From Thermofilaceae archaeon (GTDB taxonomy: Archaea; Thermoproteota; Thermoprotei; Thermofilales; Thermofilaceae): a stretch of DNA of 64,000 bases. The stretch lies in assembly GCA_038727095.1 (NCBI GenBank), contig JAVYWK010000005.1, forward strand, positions 19,340 through 83,339. Direction: 5' to 3'. This document shows, in pieces, positions 1 to 10,081 of the stretch. Within the stretch, counting starts at the first letter, position 1. Each line of letters opens with the position of its first letter. The notes below the pieces were generated by a model. That model was given only the letters and a program-made list of their open reading frames with translations, searched no databases and had not been told where the DNA came from. The position numbers and the translations under genes are program-made.

Positions 1-108
1 GAACAGCTGCTCAAGCTCCTCTGGGCCAAGCATAGGGAAAAGGTGAGGTCCATGCTCGCACGAGCGGCACAGGGTGCTGGCCTCAGGGGCCCGCAGCGAC
101 GCCGCTGA
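1..108 (+). CDS. 3' end of an unidentified CDS entering from the left edge (partial)
   Basis: Frame 1 is open from base 1 (EQLLKLLWAKHREKVRSMLARAAQG...) to TGA at 106-108, convergent with the KITE gene. Confidence 0.45.
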   Translation, partial: EQLLKLLWAKHREKVRSMLARAAQGAGLRGPQRRR

Positions 109-634
109 AGCCGGCTAGCTTATCCAAGTCCACCTCGACACGGGCCCTCCAACCGATAGATACGGTGTCACCCTCCCCCTCCTCCAGGTAGCCGAGGCGT
201 ATGAGCCTCTCGAAGGTGTAGGTGAGCCGGGGCCCCTTAAACTTGGACTTCAGGATGCTCAGCAGCTCGCTGCGCGGCGCGCTCCCTCCCCTTGCTACGA
301 GGTAGAGGAGGGAGGAGGAGAGCACGGCTAGATCATCGATCCTCCAGCCGCTCGTCTTGGCCTCCTCGATGCTCGGGGGCTCCTTCAGGACGACTAGGAA
401 GAGAGCCTTCCTGAGGTCCCCCTCAAACTTCAGCTTCCTCCCCTCCTCGTCCACTGCGACCGCCTCGAGGCCCAGCACCTCGAGGATCGAGTTGAGGGCC
501 TTAACGACCTCCACGTAGTCTTCGCCCAATGCCCTAGCCAGCTCCCACCCTCTAACCCCCGGCCTAGCCCCGCTCCTGTAGAGGAGGAGCCTGGCTGCAC
601 GCTTGAGCTTCGCTGAGGGGACTCTAGCGGGCAT
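83..634 (-). CDS. KITE-family tandem winged-helix SMC subunit (Nse1/Nse3/ScpB-like)
   Basis: 183 aa with two WH-like units (GWELARALG...LNSILEVLGLEAV; PRSELLSIL...FERLIRLGYLEE). C-terminal SIGWRARVE resembles the GPRA..E motif of Nse1/MAGE. Overlaps the kleisin gene. Confidence 0.65.
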   Translation of the reverse strand: MPARVPSAKLKRAARLLLYRSGARPGVRGWELARALGEDYVEVVKALNSILEVLGLEAVAVDEEGRKLKFEGDLRKALFLVVLKEPPSIEEAKTSGWRIDDLAVLSSSLLYLVARGGSAPRSELLSILKSKFKGPRLTYTFERLIRLGYLEEGEGDTVSIGWRARVEVDLDKLAGFSGVAAGP

Positions 635-1373
635 CCTCCACCACCCGCTCTAGCGGTATCGCCAGGGACGAAGCTTCCCCGCCGCCGCTCCTCGTGACGT
701 AGAACTCGTCGGCTAGGGGGTCGTAGACCACAGAGAACTCCCCGCTGCTGGCGAGGAGCGAGAGAGCGTACGCGTTCAAGTAAGTCTCGTAGCTGCTCCC
801 GCCCCGAACGGCCTCCGCGTAGCTCACCGCTTCCTCAACCTCCAGCAGCCGGTTCAGCCTCCCCCTCACCCTTTCAACCACCTTCTCTAGCTCAACCTGG
901 GAGAGGATTCCCAGCTCAGCCGCAAGCTCGCGCGTCGCAACCAGCGTCTGCTCCTCCCCACCCTCGAAGGCTGCCCTCGGCTTCCTACCGCCCATGTACT
1001 CGACGGCCCTCAGGATGTCGGTGAACGTGACCTGCTCCAGCTCGACAATCGGCCTCCACGCGCCGAGGAGTTGGAGGGCCAGCTCCCTCTCCCCCAGCGC
1101 GTGCACCTTCAGCGCGGCCACGAGGCGGCCCAAAGCCACGGCTGAGGCCTCGCTGGCCAGCCACTCCTCCTGCCTTCTCACGACCTCGGCCAGCCTGTAG
1201 ATCAGCTCCGCGTCCAGTGGCAGCTCCTCCACCTTGAGCTTCGGTAGGAGTGAAGCCAGCTCGTCGAGCAGCTCCTTTACCCTAACCCTGAAGGGGTCAG
1301 GTGAGGCTCTCAGGGTTTCAACGATCTCCTCCAGGATTTCCCTTAACCTACCCTCAGCTGACACGTCCCCCAC
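624..1373 (-). CDS. Kleisin (ScpA/Nse4-like) SMC subunit
   Basis: N-terminal DPFRVRVKELLDEL resembles ScpA DPWDIDI. C-terminal WH (VSYAEAV...YLNAYALSLLASSGEFSVVYDPLADEFYV) resembles the ScpA C-terminus. Lies between the SMC and KITE genes. Confidence 0.7.
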   Translation of the reverse strand: MGDVSAEGRLREILEEIVETLRASPDPFRVRVKELLDELASLLPKLKVEELPLDAELIYRLAEVVRRQEEWLASEASAVALGRLVAALKVHALGERELALQLLGAWRPIVELEQVTFTDILRAVEYMGGRKPRAAFEGGEEQTLVATRELAAELGILSQVELEKVVERVRGRLNRLLEVEEAVSYAEAVRGGSSYETYLNAYALSLLASSGEFSVVYDPLADEFYVTRSGGGEASSLAIPLERVVEDAR

Positions 1374-3090
1374 CCCTGCTCAGCGAGACGAGCGTCCTTC
1401 CCCGGACCTTCTGTATGAGGAGCGTGTGGGCGTTCTCGGGCAGCTTAGTGAGGGGGCCCGGTGTGATCACGACGTACTGGACGCCCGGGCTCGCCTCAGC
1501 GAGCTCGAAAACTATGTTTAGCACAGCATCCCTGTTGCGCGGGTCCATATGCACGTCGAACTCGTCCACGGCTCTGAAGGGGGATTTAACGTGGTTCTGG
1601 AGGGCGAGGAAGAAGCAGACGACTGCGGCGGTCCTCTCACCCCCGCTCAGGGAGTAGGGGTTGAGCGGTGCGGGTGCGGCACCGCCGTAACCGACGAGGA
1701 TCTCGAGGCCCGCGCTCTCAACGTCCCCGCTCTCCGCCAACCTGACGCTGCCGCTGGCCCCCAACCTGGCCAGCATTGCGGAGAACAGCTTGTCGACGTC
1801 CTCCACAACCGCGGACACCTTCTCCCTCCAGAGGCTGATCCGCTTCTCCAGCTCCTCCTCCAACCTCCTCTTGTTCTCCTCCAGCTCCACAGCCCTCTTC
1901 TCCAGCTCTCGGTACTCTTCGAGGAGCTTCCCGTAGGCCTCCTCAACCTCCGCCGGTATCTCGCCGATGGCCGCGAGGGAGAGCTCCACCGACCGGATCT
2001 CCTCCTGTATCTCCACAACGCTCCTCACCGATTCCACCCTCTCGCCCTCCTCGAGCGCCTTCTCCTCGAGCGCCCTAACCTTCTCCGCAGCCCTGCGGCG
2101 GCGGGCCTCCAACTCCTCCCGCTCAGCGATCAGAAGCCTACGCTCGAAGGCTTTCACGCGGGCCGACGCGACCACTTCGACCAGCCCCTCCCAGACGCTG
2201 CGCAGCATCGCCAGACCCTCGGCAAGGCCCAGTGCGCCGCTGGTGATCTGCCGCTCAATTGAGCCCAGCTCAGCCCTCAGCTCCCCCTCCCTCGAGCCTA
2301 GCACCCCCAGCGCCTCCTCCACCCCCTTCAGCTCCAGCGTAACCCTGCTGAGCTCCTCCTCAACCGCCCTCAGGTCGGCCTCCGCGTCCCGCACTCTGGC
2401 CCAGGCGAGCTCCCTACGCAGCAGCTTGAGGCTCTCCTCGAGCGCCCTCCTCCTCCTGTACCTCTCGTAAACCTCGCTCCAGTACTTGAGAGCCTCCCGG
2501 GCTCTAGCGAGCGCGCTTTTAGCCTCCTCCGCGCTCTTCGCGCCTTCAGCTAGCATCCTCTTCGCCGCCAGTACCCTCTCCCTGTACCCCGCCAGGCCCA
2601 CGGCTTCCTCGAGCAGCCTGAGCCTCTCCTGGGGCGAGAGGAAGGCGAACTCCTCCACCACGCCCTGGTGCATGATGATCAGCGCGTTGTCGGGGTCTAG
2701 GCCCAGCCTCGATAGGTACCTCTTGACCTCAGCCTTCGTGACAACCCTCCCGTTCACTTCGTGCCAGTACTGGCCGTCGATCCTCAGGTACCGCGTGAAG
2801 AACACCTCGTCGCTCCGGAACCAGGGGAGGGGGCGGCGCCCATCCACGGGGCGATTGTCGATGACAACCGTCACTCGGGCTGCCTCCTCGCCGCGCCTAA
2901 TCAGGTCGCTCAACCTGCGCCCCCTCTCCGTGTACGTCTGACCGAGCGCAACGCTGATGCCGAGGAGGAGGCTGCTCTTACCCGAACCGTTGGGCCCCGT
3001 GACTATGTTGATGCCCGGCGCTAGGGGGACCCTAGCGTACTTGTAGCTCATGAAGTTCTCCAGCACAACTTCCTTGATTAGCGCGGGCAC
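1354..3090 (-). CDS. SMC-family ATPase, Smc5/6-like, short coiled coil
   Basis: 578 aa. LENFMSY, Walker A GPNGSGKS, Q-loop IIMHQ, coiled coil, signature LSGGER, Walker B/D-loop PFRAVDEFDVHMD, QYVVITP. Confidence 0.92.
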   Translation of the reverse strand: MPALIKEVVLENFMSYKYARVPLAPGINIVTGPNGSGKSSLLLGISVALGQTYTERGRRLSDLIRRGEEAARVTVVIDNRPVDGRRPLPWFRSDEVFFTRYLRIDGQYWHEVNGRVVTKAEVKRYLSRLGLDPDNALIIMHQGVVEEFAFLSPQERLRLLEEAVGLAGYRERVLAAKRMLAEGAKSAEEAKSALARAREALKYWSEVYERYRRRRALEESLKLLRRELAWARVRDAEADLRAVEEELSRVTLELKGVEEALGVLGSREGELRAELGSIERQITSGALGLAEGLAMLRSVWEGLVEVVASARVKAFERRLLIAEREELEARRRRAAEKVRALEEKALEEGERVESVRSVVEIQEEIRSVELSLAAIGEIPAEVEEAYGKLLEEYRELEKRAVELEENKRRLEEELEKRISLWREKVSAVVEDVDKLFSAMLARLGASGSVRLAESGDVESAGLEILVGYGGAAPAPLNPYSLSGGERTAAVVCFFLALQNHVKSPFRAVDEFDVHMDPRNRDAVLNIVFELAEASPGVQYVVITPGPLTKLPENAHTLLIQKVRGRTLVSLSRGGGRVS

Positions 3091-3128
3091 CTCGTTGGTT
3101 GGGGAACCGCCGGCTATAACGCTATTCC

Positions 3129-4154
3129 CTAGAAGAACGACTCAAGCGTGCTCTGGCGGGCTCTCGCCCAGGCCTTCTCCAGCCTGGCGATCACGAGCTC
3201 GGCTCTATCGTGCGAGAAGCTGTTCTCCTCGACCAGGAACCTGTACAGCTCCTCGCTCTGGGGCTCGGCGGAGACGATCTCGTAGTCCTCCCTCACGGGA
3301 GGGTTGAGGAAGAGCTCAACGATCTCGCGGTAGTTGGCTGGCAGTAGCTCCCTGATCCTCGAGGGCAGCCGATCGAGGCTCCCGTACAGCTTGATGAGCT
3401 TGTACGCCCTCTTCGGCCCAATCCCCTTCACACCCCTGTTGTAGTCGGTCCCCGAGAGCACGGCTACCTCGACCAACTGCCTGCGCGTCAGCTGGAGGGA
3501 GCCGAGAAGCCTGTCGAGCTCGACCAGCTCGGGCTCCAGCTTCCTCGCCGCCATCTTGCTGGGAAGCCACTCGAAACCCGTCAGCGTCACGTACCTCACG
3601 AGCCGGGGGGCGCCGTACAGCAGCGAGTCCCAATCCTGGCTGGCCACCGCCCAAGCCTCCCCCCTCGAGACGATGAGCGCGGCCTGAGCCTCAGCGTCGT
3701 GGGGAGCGTCGACGATGGGGAAGCCTATGAGCTTGAGCAGCTTCCTGCTGCTCCCGAGGATCCACTCATCCACGCTCGCCGACACCACGGCCTTGGAGAA
3801 GGCCTTCTCGTACTCGCCCGCTTCGATCAGCCTCCTGTACTCCTCCAGCGCCCTCTCCCTCAGCTCCCTCCTCCTCGCGATCTCCGCCCGCTTGAGGGGG
3901 TGCGGGGGGCCGTCGAAGACGAAAATGAACTTGCAGTTGTGCTCGAAGGCGAGCCTGGAGAAGCGGGTCGCCAAGCCTACAAGGTGCGAAGTGACTTGGC
4001 CCCTGCTGTTCCTCAACGGCTCGCCCCTCGTATCCCTGACCAGTGCGAGGAACTGGTAGATAGCGTTCAGCGCGTCGACGGCCAGCACTTTACCCTCCAA
4101 GCCCTTCAGCCCGATCCTCTCCGGCTTAGTTAGGGGGGTGAGTTTCGAGCCCAT
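3129..4154 (-). CDS. fen: Flap endonuclease 1
   Basis: AVDALNAIYQFL, FVFDG, DAEAQAA, SQDWDSLLYG, GTDYN.GVKGIGPK and C-terminal PIP box QSTLESFF. Confidence 0.97.
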   Translation of the reverse strand: MGSKLTPLTKPERIGLKGLEGKVLAVDALNAIYQFLALVRDTRGEPLRNSRGQVTSHLVGLATRFSRLAFEHNCKFIFVFDGPPHPLKRAEIARRRELRERALEEYRRLIEAGEYEKAFSKAVVSASVDEWILGSSRKLLKLIGFPIVDAPHDAEAQAALIVSRGEAWAVASQDWDSLLYGAPRLVRYVTLTGFEWLPSKMAARKLEPELVELDRLLGSLQLTRRQLVEVAVLSGTDYNRGVKGIGPKRAYKLIKLYGSLDRLPSRIRELLPANYREIVELFLNPPVREDYEIVSAEPQSEELYRFLVEENSFSHDRAELVIARLEKAWARARQSTLESFF

Positions 4155-4157
4155 CCT

Positions 4158-5330
4158 TCAGCCGGCGAATTCCCACTCCTCCAGGTTGGCTGCGATGTCC
4201 TGAAGCAGCTCTCTCGAAGCGTCTCTCGGCAGCGCGAGGAAGAGCTTCACCAGGTGCTTGCAGAACCTCTTCGACTCCAGCGACTTCCTCCAATCCTCGC
4301 AGTCGTGGTAGAGCCTCCGACCCACTCGGTCCACCTCGACGCGGTAGCTCTTCACGCGGGCTGTAACCCCCTCGCTCGTCAGCGTGTACTGGACCTCCGC
4401 GTCGACGATTTCGAGAGCCCGCTGGAACCTCCGATCACCGGCTAAAGCCTTCAGGAACTCCTCGATCCTACCTTCCTCCAGCTCGCGGACCACGCTTTTA
4501 GCGACTGGAGGGGCTGAGGAGAAGTACCTGTCCATCCGAGACAGCATCTCCAGCTGCCGGCTGTCCGCGAGGCCCAGCAGCGCGAGCATCTGGAGGGCGT
4601 TGTGGGGGGCGAAGCCCCTGAAGTGGTTGTTGAAGTAGCCGAGGAGCAGCTCAACCTGCTCCGCCAGTTGCCTCACCTTTTCGGCCCACGGCTTCAGCTC
4701 CTCGAGGCTGTAGTGGTAGTAGTACCATGGTCGCTCCCCCCTCCCGTGCCACCTCACGTACGCGAACCCGGCGGTCACTTCAGTTATGGGAGGGAGAAGG
4801 GGTTCGTCGACGATGACGTAGGCCACCCCGTACCTCCTGAGCAGGTTGAAGACCTCGCTGTTGATCCAGCTCGGGTCGCGGAACTCCACTGCGAACCTCA
4901 CGCCCTGGGGGAGTAGGGCGAGGAACTCCTCGAACCAAGGCAGCTCCCACCTCTCCTTCGGTGGGAGCTGGATGAGCACCGCACCCAGCTTCTTCTGCCT
5001 GGCGAGGGGATGGATGGACTTTAGGAAGGCGTTGAGCTCGGCTTCGACGAACTTCGGGTTCAGCAGCCTCTTGTGCGTGACCCCCCTGTACATCTTCACT
5101 GAGAAGTAGAAGCCCGGTGGGGCTGACCTGGCGAGCCCCTCGTAGAACCTCTCGCTCAGCAGGGTGTAGAACGAGGAGTTGACCTCAACAGTGTCGAACA
5201 GCTTCGCGTAGCTGGTGAACATGCCCCTGTCGCTATCGTAGAAGGGGCCGACCCAGTCGTCGTAGTCCCAGCCCGAAGTACCGATCCGGATCCTCGACCG
5301 CGGCAGCCCCAGGAACTCGTCCAGCGACAT
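4158..5330 (-). CDS. DUF72 (YecE-like TIM barrel) fused to a C-terminal SWIM-type Zn finger
   Basis: IGTSGWDY, VEVNSSFY, LIQLPP, AVEFR, YVRWHG, YFNN, then HDCEDW...FCKHLVK. Start moved to ATG 5330 (track ORF extends to 5384). Confidence 0.88.
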   Translation of the reverse strand: MSLDEFLGLPRSRIRIGTSGWDYDDWVGPFYDSDRGMFTSYAKLFDTVEVNSSFYTLLSERFYEGLARSAPPGFYFSVKMYRGVTHKRLLNPKFVEAELNAFLKSIHPLARQKKLGAVLIQLPPKERWELPWFEEFLALLPQGVRFAVEFRDPSWINSEVFNLLRRYGVAYVIVDEPLLPPITEVTAGFAYVRWHGRGERPWYYYHYSLEELKPWAEKVRQLAEQVELLLGYFNNHFRGFAPHNALQMLALLGLADSRQLEMLSRMDRYFSSAPPVAKSVVRELEEGRIEEFLKALAGDRRFQRALEIVDAEVQYTLTSEGVTARVKSYRVEVDRVGRRLYHDCEDWRKSLESKRFCKHLVKLFLALPRDASRELLQDIAANLEEWEFAG

Positions 5331-5373
5331 CACCGGCAAGACCACGGCCCGCGTAAATATGCAGCGCGCAATC

Positions 5374-5404
5374 CTAGTAGTCATCTTTATATTCTAGTTT
5401 TCAT
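5374..5404 (+). promoter_or_regulatory. vapBC promoter: TATA flanked by a direct repeat (possible antitoxin operator)
   Basis: TTTATAT at 5386-5392 lies between CTAGTAGTCAT (5374-5384) and CTAGTTTTCAT (5394-5404), about 23 nt before GTG 5415. Confidence 0.45.
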
Positions 5405-5414
5405 TCTCAATCTC

Positions 5415-5630
5415 GTGAGGGTTAAGGTCACCAGGAACTACCAAGTCACCATACCGGTGGAGGTGAGAGAGGCTTTGGGGATTAGGGAGGGGGACTACGT
5501 GGAGTTCGAGCTGCAGGATGGCGTAGCCCTGCTGAAGCCTGTGAGGAGGAAGTGGTCGACGATCAAGCTCGGTAGTGCGCTGAGCGTCGAGGAGATCGAG
5601 GAGATCGCCGATAGAGCGTTCTCGCCCTAG
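5415..5630 (+). CDS. vapB: AbrB/MazE-type antitoxin
   Basis: VKVTRNYQVTIPVEVREALGIREGDYVEF (SpoVT/AbrB motif), directly upstream of a PIN gene. Confidence 0.92.
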   Translation: MRVKVTRNYQVTIPVEVREALGIREGDYVEFELQDGVALLKPVRRKWSTIKLGSALSVEEIEEIADRAFSP

Positions 5631-5633
5631 GGC

Positions 5634-6023
5634 ATGCTCGTCCTTGACACCAACGTGCTCGTCTACGCGAGCGTGGAGGACAGCGAGTTCCACGAGGAGA
5701 GCTTGAAGCTGCTCAACGAGAGGGACTCTGTGATACCGCAGATCGTGGTTTACGAGTACATCAGGGTTATTGCGGAGCTTACTCGGGACCCCCTGTTTGT
5801 CTTAACGAAGATCTGGGAGCTGGCGGAGTACAACGTTCTATGCGAGCCGCTTCACGTCGTTCAGAGGGGTGTGCAGCTCTGGACGGAGCGCAACGCCCCC
5901 ATCAGGGAGCTGAACGATTGTGTTATCCTCGCTTTAGCCCTCACGCTCAACGCTGAGCTCGCAACGTACGACAGGAAGCTTAGGCGGCTCGCTGAAGAGC
6001 TGGGAGTGCCAACGCGCCCCTAG
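5634..6023 (+). CDS. vapC: PIN-domain toxin
   Basis: VLDTNVLV...YE...NDCVI...LATYDRKL. Confidence 0.93.
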   Translation: MLVLDTNVLVYASVEDSEFHEESLKLLNERDSVIPQIVVYEYIRVIAELTRDPLFVLTKIWELAEYNVLCEPLHVVQRGVQLWTERNAPIRELNDCVILALALTLNAELATYDRKLRRLAEELGVPTRP

Positions 6024-7644: not shown

Positions 7645-8200
7645 GGCCTGATGGTCATCTATTCTCTTTGCTCTCAAGAGTAACGATTTACATCGATTTC
7701 CTCCTTATCCATATGAAGACGTCATATATCGCTGCCTCCTTGTTTTCTAGCTGGTTTACACGCTTCAGTCCACCGTGATGAAAAGCAGGAGGTCCTCCAC
7801 CCTCGCCCGATCTTCAGCCATCATGAGGTTATTCACCGTGAGCTGCTCGCGCGACATGCACACTCAGTTAAATGATTAGCGCTTTCCCCCACTTATAGGC
7901 AGCAAGCTGATGATGTGGCCCGCGAACACCATTGGCAACAGAATCATTTCTCTTACTTCACCCTCCAGCCTCTTCATGTTCCTGCTCAAGCTCGAGCACT
8001 CACCTCTAAGAGCTGCGATTCCGCCTCGCTGACGCCGCAAGAAGGGCTATAAGGGGGAAGAGTAGGTGCAAGTACTGCCACGACTGCTTCAAGTTCGGGG
8101 GCTTAGTCTACAGCACGGAGGTGTAGTTCGCTTGAGGAGGTGGAACGCAGCTCTCTCTTACTGCTCCATTAGATCGTCGTGAAGCTAAATACTCATCTAG

Positions 8201-8218
8201 TTTTCCAATATTTTAAGG
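8201..8218 (+). repeat. 18-bp exact direct repeat, copy 1 (TTTTCCAATATTTTAAGG)
   Basis: Identical to 26411-26428. Confidence 0.85.
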
Positions 8219-8239
8219 TAAATCGGTGGGCGAGATGAG

Positions 8240-9511
8240 CTACGGGCTGTCGCTGAACTGAGCCACGACGTAGCACGTGTAGCCTACGCGTACAGGTGGA
8301 TAAGTACAGGTGACGCCGATCCCAGCGTAGCGCCAGGCGGGGTTGAGCATGTTAGCGTTATGCCCGGGGCTCTTGCTCCACTCGTGCACAGCCTGCCTGG
8401 CTAGCTCATCAGCGCTCGTCCTGCTCGGGATGGGTATAACGATTGGGAAAACGATGATAAAGCCCGGCTGCCCCGAAGCCATGAACAAGTTCTCACCCCA
8501 CATTCTGTCGTCTGGACCTACGGAGTGCGAGAACACCCTGGTGGAAGCTAGATGCTGGCTCCAGCTTTTAGCCCTCCACGCGAGGTACTCGCTCCAACCT
8601 AAGCCAGGAAGACCATGCGATACTCTGTACTCATTTATTGCCGCAAGGATCATGCGGGCTGCAAGCTCTTCATCCACCGTGTTGAAAACGTGCAGGCCCG
8701 CAACGATCAGAACAATCAGGATTGGGGCGATTACCCACTTTTTCAACTTTCGCATCACTCTGTCTTTGGTAAGCGCAGCTCGGCGCCGCTTCATGGGGGC
8801 GCTATAACGCTGCAGCAGCGTCCTCTTGGTACCGGCGGCCGGAGCCTCGGTCTTCACAGTTACAGGTCTACGCTTCCTCTCGTTGTACTCCCTCCAGAAC
8901 CAGCTGGTGTACGCGGTACAAGGGTGGCCACTCTCGCTCAACCAGTGCTCCTTTATAACAGGAGCTATGTCGCGGTACTGTATAATGTAAGCTTGGTACT
9001 GATTAAAGGTCATCGCTAATCTCGGTGCTGCGTGTTTCTCACAATAAAATTCACCGCAGTACTTGCACACAGCAAGAACTTTCTCAGAATGATCTCCCTC
9101 AATTGTACAACGAGGACATTTTCCACATTGTCCATTGGTAATAGTGCCTTCTTGCCCAACTTTGAACCTGAAATCTGTGGTCTCCCAAAGTTGCAGAGGC
9201 GGGGGGCTACGTCCTGCAAGCTCTTCGTACAGCTCGCACACTAGTTGCCGAACGAAAGGTGACAAATCACGATATTCTCTTGCTTGCTCCAGTACTTTCT
9301 CAGCAAACTCCCATCTGGTAATATTGTTCCGAGCCAGTTCATCACCAAGTCTTTCGACCTTCATGTAAAATTGGACATCACCGTAGCTAAGGTAATTGCG
9401 TGGTCTGGCGAAGACCTCAACACCGTACTTCTCAAGGAGAAATGAACGATATTTAATCAGAATTGGGTTCACTAAACGTGTTAGAATGTAGTGTCCATCC
9501 TCCCCTGTCAT
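8240..9511 (-). CDS. Membrane protein with AN1-like Zn finger, TM helix and C-terminal CAP (SCP) domain
   Basis: CPRC...CKYCGEFYCEKH...HPC; TM WVIAPILIVLIVAGL; CAP motifs INEYRVSHGL, FSHS, GENL, WSKSPGHNANML..WRYAGIG. Confidence 0.85.
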   Translation of the reverse strand: MTGEDGHYILTRLVNPILIKYRSFLLEKYGVEVFARPRNYLSYGDVQFYMKVERLGDELARNNITRWEFAEKVLEQAREYRDLSPFVRQLVCELYEELAGRSPPPLQLWETTDFRFKVGQEGTITNGQCGKCPRCTIEGDHSEKVLAVCKYCGEFYCEKHAAPRLAMTFNQYQAYIIQYRDIAPVIKEHWLSESGHPCTAYTSWFWREYNERKRRPVTVKTEAPAAGTKRTLLQRYSAPMKRRRAALTKDRVMRKLKKWVIAPILIVLIVAGLHVFNTVDEELAARMILAAINEYRVSHGLPGLGWSEYLAWRAKSWSQHLASTRVFSHSVGPDDRMWGENLFMASGQPGFIIVFPIVIPIPSRTSADELARQAVHEWSKSPGHNANMLNPAWRYAGIGVTCTYPPVRVGYTCYVVAQFSDSP

Positions 9512-10081
9512 TGTACTTAATTCTTTAAAAATGCTTTAAACTTTTCCTTTTTAAAGTAGATGACAATTAGCCCTAGGTTTTCTAGGGAATTGACCTAGTG
9601 GTTGCTCTTTAAAATATTGTTAGGGTTGGTAAAGCTTCAGCCCTCATGATCAACTTAAGAAGAGCTATCCTTCGATTGGCTGAGCTCATCGCTTACGTTA
9701 CGGCTCCTGCGCTGCGGTTTTGCATGAGTAGTTTCACCGCCTTTCGTAAAAGTCAAACGCAGTGAATGTGCTGTATGACGTGCGAACTCAATGTTAAAAA
9801 TCAATATGTTCTTACAGTTTCGTCGACACGTTCGCAGCCCCTATCTAATCACAATGCGTTTGTGTTTTAAATTTCCCTCCATGCGCAAGCGAGAAAGTTT
9901 AACAAGTACGTCATCCTAGCTACAGTCTGATCGCTACATAAGAAGCTGGTTTCATATAACCAGCGGCTGAGAAAGTTCGTTGAGAAATAGAAGTCGTATA
10001 CGCGCCCTCAACGGGAATAAAGAGTACTCGAAATCGATAAGAGACTCACCCTCTTGAGCTCCGTACTGCTGGACCTGTAAG

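Follow-up and report, generated by a model that had tools for sequence, protein, structure and literature searches.

A three-gene operon of a Thermofilaceae archaeon encodes a probable short-armed relative of the eukaryotic Smc5/6 core

[quoted passage not shown] Passages of Yoshinaga and Inagaki (2021; PMC8665677) describe nine, and later 80, archaeal “SMC5/6-related” homologues, found in Crenarchaeota, Verstraetearchaeota, Thaumarchaeota, Bathyarchaeota and Korarchaeota, and place them at the base of SMC5+6. A section of PMC9389158 gives an archaeal SMC5/6-related sub-clade a maximum-likelihood bootstrap of 100% and a Bayesian posterior probability of 0.99, and excerpts of a 2024-25 preprint (van Hooff et al., bioRxiv 10.1101/2024.01.07.573240) report archaeal SMC operons with a matching kleisin and kite. 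The locus described here is a three-gene operon within a 64,000-nucleotide (nt) stretch of DNA from a Thermofilaceae archaeon (GenBank assembly GCA_038727095.1, contig JAVYWK010000005.1, positions 19,340 to 83,339; hereafter the window), and encodes an SMC-type ATPase, a kleisin and a kite subunit. It matches the published archaeal SMC5/6-related systems in the phyla of its family members, its three-gene layout and the affinities of all three subunits, a match that rests on taxonomy and properties, not on accessions. The operon is a new member of a family known from phylogenomics and experimentally uncharacterised. An earlier note on this DNA had called the complex one not known to be experimentally characterised; no experimental study of archaeal SMC5/6-related complexes was found in the literature searched, so that statement stands for experiment, whereas the kind of system had already been described phylogenomically in the passages of PMC8665677 and bioRxiv 10.1101/2024.01.07.573240 cited above. 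Thermoproteota are frequently described as devoid of SMC complexes, as in a passage of PMC12153180, and the operon therefore matters for the question of how chromosomes are organised and repaired in these archaea.

The three gene products very probably form a single complex that is an archaeal relative of the Smc5/6 core of eukaryotes, with genome maintenance as the guess at its cellular role. By homology and modelling, the operon supplies an intact SMC-type ATPase, an Nse4-type kleisin and an Nse1/Nse3-type kite, in a gene order conserved across phyla. The SMC and kleisin genes overlap by 20 nt (1354-1373) and the kleisin and kite genes by 11 nt (624-634), exactly the arrangement of three overlapping minus-strand genes that the earlier note had described and that the list of open reading frames (ORFs) gives. 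That these are genes and not chance ORFs follows from the 2143 relatives of the SMC protein found at E <= 0.001 among 8000 scored candidates, from the SMC homologue encoded in 511 of the 599 pattern matches of a scan covering one genome per species, and from the kleisin and kite homologues lying directly downstream in most related loci. The host, taken earlier for a crenarchaeote, is indeed a member of the Thermoproteota (Thermofilaceae), and a protein 99% identical to the window SMC is assigned by NCBI to the metagenome-assembled genome (MAG) of a Thermofilaceae archaeon.

The ATPase looks intact, since the Walker A, Q-loop, signature and Walker B residues listed in Table 1 are invariant in every member of two family alignments, of 13 and 46 sequences; the name Q-loop is given here to the MHQ motif, following SMC usage. 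The signature motif lines up with LSGGE in SMC6, canonical SMC and SbcC. At the H-loop position, QYVVITP, I542 and P544 are invariant in both alignments, and Q538 and T543 are invariant among the 13 and at least 90% conserved among the 46. The Walker B block and H-loop together read PFRAVDEFDVHMD and VITP in the window protein, PFRAMDEFDIFMD and FITP in plant SMC6 (P0154), and PFRVVDEINQGMD and QYFLITP in yeast Smc5; the corresponding strings are PFYVLDEVDMFLD and MVSL in canonical archaeal SMC, and PFCVLDEIEAALD and IVTH in bacterial SMC, while the H-loop of SbcC reads VISH. The earlier note had judged the head motifs to be nearer to Smc6 and Smc5 than to bacterial Smc, and this is borne out against real plant SMC6, yeast Smc5 and canonical SMC sequences; the strings that it quoted (TERGRRLSDLIRRG, DNALIIMHQGVVEEFA, PFRAVDEFDVHMDPRN and QYVVITP) are all present in the 578-amino-acid (aa) translation, and IGWRARVE in that of 183 aa.

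Comparison with solved structures points the same way. Searched alone against the PDB, the window SMC scores 127.7 bits with yeast Smc5, 108 with the Smc6 chain 9lwi_A and 100 with a Pyrococcus Smc construct, followed by Smc3 (87.1), Smc1 (75.5), Smc2 (72.4), Smc4 (54.4) and Rad50 (~28). A profile of the 13-member family gives 203 bits for Smc5 and 201 for Smc6, against 158 for Pyrococcus Smc, 141 for Smc2, 117 for Smc3, 116 for Smc4, 106 for Smc1 and 52 for Rad50. The phylogenetic signal, as judged from sequence, is mainly in the C-terminal half of the head, whose profile favours SMC6 (62-77 bits) over archaeal SMC (35-62) and bacterial SMC (29-45).

The position of the family was examined in a rooted tree of 54 rows and 311 columns, built under LG+C20+F+G4 by posterior mean site frequency (PMSF). 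Its rows comprise the SMC family, plant SMC6 with two more SMC6 orthologues, 21 canonical archaeal and bacterial SMC sequences sorted by NCBIfam, and an outgroup of six SbcC, namely E. coli K-12 sbcC and five plasmid-borne genes; an Aerococcus copy, split in two, was left out. A tblastn search of plasmids for outgroups with the window SMC had returned 19 records, all of them canonical SMC. The tree separates the family and SMC6 from canonical SMC and SbcC with full support (ultrafast bootstrap/SH-like approximate likelihood ratio test, SH-aLRT, 100/100), and recovers both the SMC family (91/90) and SMC6 (100/99) as monophyletic. This grouping opposes the effect commonly expected of long branches, by which SMC6 would be attracted to SbcC. 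A sister relationship between the family and SMC6 is thus favoured by the sequence data, in line with the published trees of PMC8665677 and PMC9389158.

The 249-aa partner belongs to the kleisins, as the earlier note had supposed, and its affinity to the Nse4 type is supported by the family profile, by Pfam, by an AlphaFold2 (AF2) model and by Foldseek. The model (predicted local distance difference test, pLDDT, 76) consists of a helical domain at the N-terminus (residues 6-105) and a winged helix at the C-terminus (159-228), joined by a linker of low confidence (108-145). Partner families were aligned from the genes downstream of SMC homologues at 80 loci from the one-genome-per-species collection. 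In the PDB, the resulting kleisin profile finds yeast Nse4 (E 1.1e-4), with the match covering the C-terminal winged helix, and human EID3 (E 0.0041). Of the 65 kleisin family members, 53 carry a match to Pfam Nse4_C (best E 1.2e-6), the window copy not among them, and ScpA is absent from the 16 Pfam families matched by the family. The top seven Foldseek matches of the model are all chains of SMC-complex entries, the first two of them Nse4 chains; the others include chains of cohesin and condensin entries, presumably the kleisins RAD21 and Brn1, and the C-terminal winged helix of ScpA at a target-normalised TM-score (TMt) of 0.77.

For the 183-aa partner, the affinity lies in the fold. Its AF2 model (pLDDT 87.7; predicted TM-score, pTM, 0.77) has two winged helices, and all four Foldseek matches at E <= 0.001 are chains of the Nse1/MAGE-G1 and Nse1-Nse3-Nse4 entries, three of them at a query-normalised TM-score (TMq) of 0.64-0.66; chains of MukE, ScpB and JetB come next, at 0.31-0.44 (ScpB 0.37-0.39). 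Pfam MAGE matches 10 of the 58 members of the kite family (best E 0.0063) and SMC_Nse1 matches one. The identification of this protein as an Nse1/Nse3-like KITE thus accords with the modelled fold. It has no cysteines at all, so an Nse1-type RING is not possible.

Several results weigh against so close a tie to Smc5/6. The SMC trees contain no Smc5, no Smc1-4 and no archaeal Rad50, and an approximately unbiased (AU) test retains the rival topology, in which the family goes with canonical SMC and SMC6 with SbcC (-7.63 log-likelihood, p 0.234). In a tree without the outgroup, three clades meet at the SMC family, which forms a hub between two long branches; this tree was uninformative on sisterhood and was dropped as a test of it. 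The N-terminal half of the head is no closer to one group than to another (plant SMC6 61-68 bits, archaeal SMC 52-75, bacterial SMC 46-69), and a long relative searched alone, P0121, scores the Pyrococcus Smc construct above Smc5 (113.7 against 99.3 bits). Among the partners, the kleisin's Foldseek matches stop short of E <= 0.001 and are weak (best E 7.1e-3), and the window kleisin and kite on their own have no Pfam, NCBIfam or PDB sequence match. The kite family profile reaches no Nse1 or Nse3 by sequence in the PDB (best E 1), and its 146 matches among 1.84 billion representatives are the family itself or fragments, with no Nse1 or Nse3; of 13 weak matches that were scanned, two carry sub-threshold ScpB signals and none MAGE. 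Since the AU test fails to reject the rival tree, the sister relationship with SMC6 is favoured, not proven, and the Smc5/6 affinity put forward earlier for the head has gained a fully supported grouping with SMC6 while its rival stays unrejected.

These points could be taken together to mean that the operon is a diverged paralogue of the canonical, condensin-type archaeal Smc-ScpAB, its Smc5/6-like motifs being convergent or retained ancestral states. The likeness to Smc-ScpAB is real as far as it goes, in the logic of an SMC homodimer, a kleisin and a kite dimer and in the same ATPase motifs, and the best NCBIfam model for the window SMC is SMC_prok_A (E 9.8e-58). Yet its 195.7 bits fall far short of the cut-off of 729.4, as do the 141.7 bits of SMC_prok_B (cut-off 567.35). 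Against a paralogue of this kind, the best tree parts the family from all 21 canonical SMC rows, which stand on the opposite side of the 100/100 branch; the kleisin family carries Nse4_C and no ScpA; the kite is far nearer in fold to Nse1/Nse3 chains (TMq ~0.65) than to ScpB; and none of the window proteins matches Pfam SMC_hinge, ScpA or ScpB. An Smc-ScpAB origin is therefore regarded as quite improbable.

That the three proteins work together as one Smc5/6-like complex is consistent with the conservation of their genes. A kleisin is present in 67 and a kite in 61 of the 80 loci, many of the remaining loci ending too early; where at least 1500 nt follow the SMC gene (62 loci), a kleisin is found in 60 and both partners in 57, and in 54 of the 62 the three genes follow one another in the order SMC, kleisin, kite on a single strand, with small gaps between them. 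Thermofilaceae, other Thermoproteota, Bathyarchaeia and Hadarchaeota are among the sources of these loci. Among 61 loci, no conserved fourth gene follows on the same strand, and in other lineages the operon adjoins the housekeeping genes for RNA polymerase A', NusA and L30e.

The surroundings also bear on whether the complex acts on chromosomes at all, or is an SMC-based defence against plasmids and viruses, in the manner of Wadjet, Lamassu or the antiviral human Smc5/6. Such a function would suit the MazE-like/PIN toxin-antitoxin pair 2.3 kb away and the PADLOC matches of the window SMC to mad3 (118 bits), LmuB (73 bits) and, over an arm segment, JetC (35.9 bits). These scores were judged no higher than the protein's generic match to Pfam SMC_N (1.4e-30, 106.8 bits), and are generic, head-level matches; the kleisin and kite have no PADLOC match, and the operon contains no nuclease or other effector gene. 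With the MukBEF and Wadjet JetABC(D) systems the operon shares the make-up of SMC, kleisin and kite, and MukE and JetB chains are among the kite fold matches, whereas their TMq values are low, neither JetA nor JetB is matched and no JetD-like gene is present. Smc5/6 is itself named among antiviral SMC complexes in a passage of PMC10586767. Chromosome maintenance is favoured over defence because the operon is widespread in one-genome-per-species records (the 511 of 599 candidate stretches above), has housekeeping neighbours, lacks an effector gene and has partners that PADLOC does not match, and a defence function is considered very improbable.

The SMC subunit departs most clearly from eukaryotic Smc5 and Smc6 in its length. 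At 578 aa it has about half the usual length (the solved Smc5/6 chains have 1069-1114 aa), and family members mostly have 570-685 aa. Between the conserved arm markers W230 and G349, 35 of 46 members have 116-125 residues and none more than 194, which leaves no room for a hinge domain. This length argument bears the weight, because the Pfam hinge model, which finds no match in the window SMC, also misses plant SMC6. In place of a hinge domain, the tip of the arm is a Gly-rich turn, and a zinc hook is likewise absent, as the protein has a single cysteine (C492) and no CxxC. Each arm strand has roughly 120 residues, which by simple arithmetic gives an arm of roughly 17 nm, about a third of the usual SMC arm. 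Neither the short arms nor the missing hinge is mentioned in the earlier note or in main-text passages of PMC8665677 and bioRxiv 10.1101/2024.01.07.573240, and a literature search for a “hinge-less” SMC in archaea gave only a marine actinobacterial cluster, another family, in a passage of PMC12153180.

A short, hinge-less SMC invites comparison with proteins that tether DNA without encircling it. It might be supposed that the protein is a RecN- or Rad50-like tether bridging DNA ends or sister duplexes in break repair, with the kleisin and kite as regulators and no closed ring. RecN is a comparably sized hinge-less SMC-like protein, and RecN, Rad50/SbcC and ClsN/ASRP resemble the window SMC in overall size and in having no globular hinge; to our knowledge, none of them has been described with kleisin and kite partners, and a conserved pair of such partners is a hallmark of ring-forming SMC complexes. 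The genomic setting lends the tether some colour, with fen1 38 nt upstream and an Lhr-type helicase gene abutting the operon convergently, in the window as in at least 14 related loci, although none of the 68 loci with at least 1500 nt upstream keeps the fen1 neighbourhood. Similarity to the tethers is much lower than to Smc5: the family profile gives Rad50 only 52 bits, against 203 for Smc5, and on the window SMC the NCBIfam models for Rad50 (33.7-70.1 bits against cut-offs of 700-1087), ASRP (74.8 against 300), arcadin-4 and recN (E 5.9e-4) all score far below SMC_prok_A. No Mre11-like gene occurs among the annotated neighbours (fen1, DUF72, Lhr helicase), and the zinc hook, absent from the window SMC, is reported for ASRPs in a section of PMC9389158. 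This explanation appears unlikely, and a kleisin-bearing Smc5/6-type complex is preferred.

Within such a complex, something may take the place of the hinge in joining the two SMC subunits, and modelling points to the arm tip. Residues 185-410 were modelled as two copies from their own 46-row alignment, in three runs with three controls. The interface score ipSAE was 0.69 in each run and 0.00 in the best control, partner pLDDT was at least 87, and the contacts agreed 100% between runs; the mark used is reached by 20 of 30 solved homodimers and one of 23 solved monomers, counts that hold only roughly here because the alignment was custom-built. The predicted contacts are symmetric and in register (300/300, 304/304, 308/308 and 312/312, with 315 likewise at the lowest expected error), the helices running parallel near the arm tip, and a second contact patch lies at 366-376. 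W300, V312 and F315 are each the commonest residue at their position, present in 63-65% of the 46 sequences, although conservation at the predicted interface does not significantly exceed that of the remaining arm (p 0.079), and was set aside as backing for the model. The modelling supports but does not demonstrate arm-to-arm homodimerisation near the tip, and the word homodimeric in the earlier note fits both this controlled model and the operon's single SMC gene; no second SMC-like ORF was found in the window.

Long-armed relatives also exist: 13 members (P0121-P0133) have 1022-1071 aa and are nested among the short forms in both trees, beside a Nitrososphaerota protein of 645 aa (100/99). 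In two of the long members, a crude Gly+Pro profile reveals no block of hinge size. Because these long members lie inside the short ones, it is conceivable that the lineage leading to eukaryotic Smc5/6 had short arms at first, long arms and a hinge being later gains; parsimony leaves the ancestral arm length undecided, since the SMC6 outgroup is long-armed. The wider proposal, that the archaeal SMC5/6-related family is as a rule a hinge-less mini-SMC whose ~17 nm arms would be joined by a conserved distal helix bundle (W300, V312, F315), and so a compact ATP-driven DNA clamp and not a long-armed loop extruder, is put forward, together with a short-armed beginning, as a rather doubtful conjecture. 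For one of the long members, P0128, NCBI gives a Planctomycetes MAG as the source; this may reflect a binning error or transfer. A look-up of clusters by language-model features gave the family's own clusters and short bacterial SMC-like ones, the nearest non-archaeal clusters consisting of bacterial SMC_N proteins (722-882 aa) of Minisyncoccota and Actinomycetota. These bacterial clusters may represent further SMC-like families with short arms, of the kind of the marine “hinge-less” cluster described in part in PMC12153180.

By analogy with other SMC-kleisin-kite complexes, two copies of the single SMC would pair, one kleisin would bridge them, its N-terminal helices on the neck of one copy and its C-terminal winged helix on the other's cap, and two kite copies would bind the middle of the kleisin; ATP-driven engagement of the heads would then clamp DNA on top of them. 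The dimerising role of the hinge may be taken over by the parallel contact of the arm tips, a distal helix bundle in the model. The least secure step, a guess, is the cellular role: the complex may serve chromosome maintenance, by clamping DNA or holding short-range loops in replication and repair, and not defence against phages or plasmids.

Set beside the eukaryotic Smc5/6 core, such a complex would be compact. The best PDB sequence match, the Walker B block and H-loop proline, the Nse4_C-type winged helix of the kleisin and the kite fold nearest to Nse1/Nse3 chains are common ground, whereas eukaryotic Smc5/6 has two SMCs and two kites where this operon has one gene for each, has long hinged arms where the window SMC has no hinge domain, and has the Nse1 RING, the Nse2 SUMO ligase and Nse5/6 where the kite has no RING and the operon no genes for Nse2 or Nse5/6. 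What most deserves to be pursued is the half-length build without a hinge, together with the dimer modelled at the arm tip. A three-protein, thermostable and probably homodimeric version with half-length arms would be tractable for structural, ATPase and single-molecule work, and would allow a direct test of ancestral Smc5/6 properties, including DNA clamping by kites, loop extrusion, and the functions of arms and hinge.

Table 1. Features of the operon and of its surroundings, in window coordinates
Feature	Position	Strand	Description
SMC-type ABC ATPase gene	1354..3090	-	578 aa, GTG start; N-terminal head half, short antiparallel arm, C-terminal head half
Kleisin gene (Nse4 type)	624..1373	-	249 aa, GTG start
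Kite gene	83..634	-	183 aa, ATG start; two winged-helix domains (~residues 7-83, 99-160)
Walker A, GPNGSGKS	2974..2997	-	Residues 32-39; G32, P33, N34, G35, G37, K38 and S39 invariant (13/13 and 46/46 members)
Q-loop, MHQ	2665..2673	-	Residues 140-142; M140, H141 and Q142 invariant (13/13 and 46/46)
Distal arm	2143..2268	-	Residues 275-316; Gly-rich turn, then helix MLRSVWEGLVEVVASARVKAF; main block of predicted homodimer interface
ABC signature, LSGGER	1633..1650	-	Residues 481-486; S482, G483, G484 and E485 invariant (13/13 and 46/46)
Walker B and D-loop block, SPFRAVDEFDVHMD	1543..1584	-	Residues 503-516, Smc5/6 type; S503, P504, D509, E510, H514 and D516 invariant (13/13 and 46/46)
H-loop position, QYVVITP	1459..1479	-	Residues 538-544; Pro where bacterial SMC and SbcC have His
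Spacer between fen1 and SMC gene	3091..3128	-	38 nt; TTATAG at 3114-3119, ~25 nt 5' of GTG start
fen1	3129..4154	-	Upstream of SMC gene; NCBIfam fen_arch 400.5 bits, above cut-off
fen1 and DUF72 gene	3129..5384	-	Head-to-tail, just upstream of operon; 3 nt between the two genes
3' end of convergent gene	1..108	+	Last residues EQLLKLLWAKHREKV match C-terminus of Lhr-type helicase
Toxin-antitoxin genes	5415..6023	+	MazE/AbrB-type antitoxin (71 aa), then PIN-domain toxin (129 aa)
ORF of 64 aa	7584..7778	+	~1.6 kb beyond PIN gene; first 40 residues 48% identical to PIN start
Stretch of low G+C	8001..10000		G+C 0.49, against ~0.60 elsewhere
ORF of 423 aa	8240..9511	-	C-terminal CAP (cysteine-rich secretory protein family) domain; Cys-rich motifs in first half

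The TTATAG in the spacer ahead of the SMC gene is a possible archaeal TATA box, and the operon transcript, as judged from this sequence, would then be leaderless. Upstream of the spacer, fen1 follows a DUF72 gene whose 408-aa product has a long C-terminal extension. As a candidate part of the system fen1 was rejected because none of the 68 loci keeps it upstream, and elsewhere a DUF72 gene occurs within 4 kb upstream in four loci, on the operon strand in two. In 37 of the 80 loci, a divergent ORF family (for example 233 aa at L003:2148-2849 (-), with no Pfam match) lies at most 1.5 kb upstream of the SMC gene; it is missing from the window, where fen1 occupies its place.

On the other side, the gene whose 3' end enters the window is convergent with the kite gene and overlaps its 3' end; its last residues match an Lhr-type helicase (DEAD, DEAD_assoc and WH_Lhr domains) that stands tail-to-tail with the kite gene in related loci. 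The related loci in which a homologous helicase ORF follows the operon, at least 14 of the 61, belong to Thermofilaceae, other Thermoprotei and Hadarchaeota, and an abutting helicase gene of this type fits a DNA-repair setting, which proves nothing.

Across the window, no tRNA or Rfam family was found. The 64-aa ORF beyond the toxin-antitoxin pair looks, from its sequence, like a truncated second copy of the PIN gene. The low-G+C stretch coincides with the ORF for the CAP-domain protein and may be foreign DNA.

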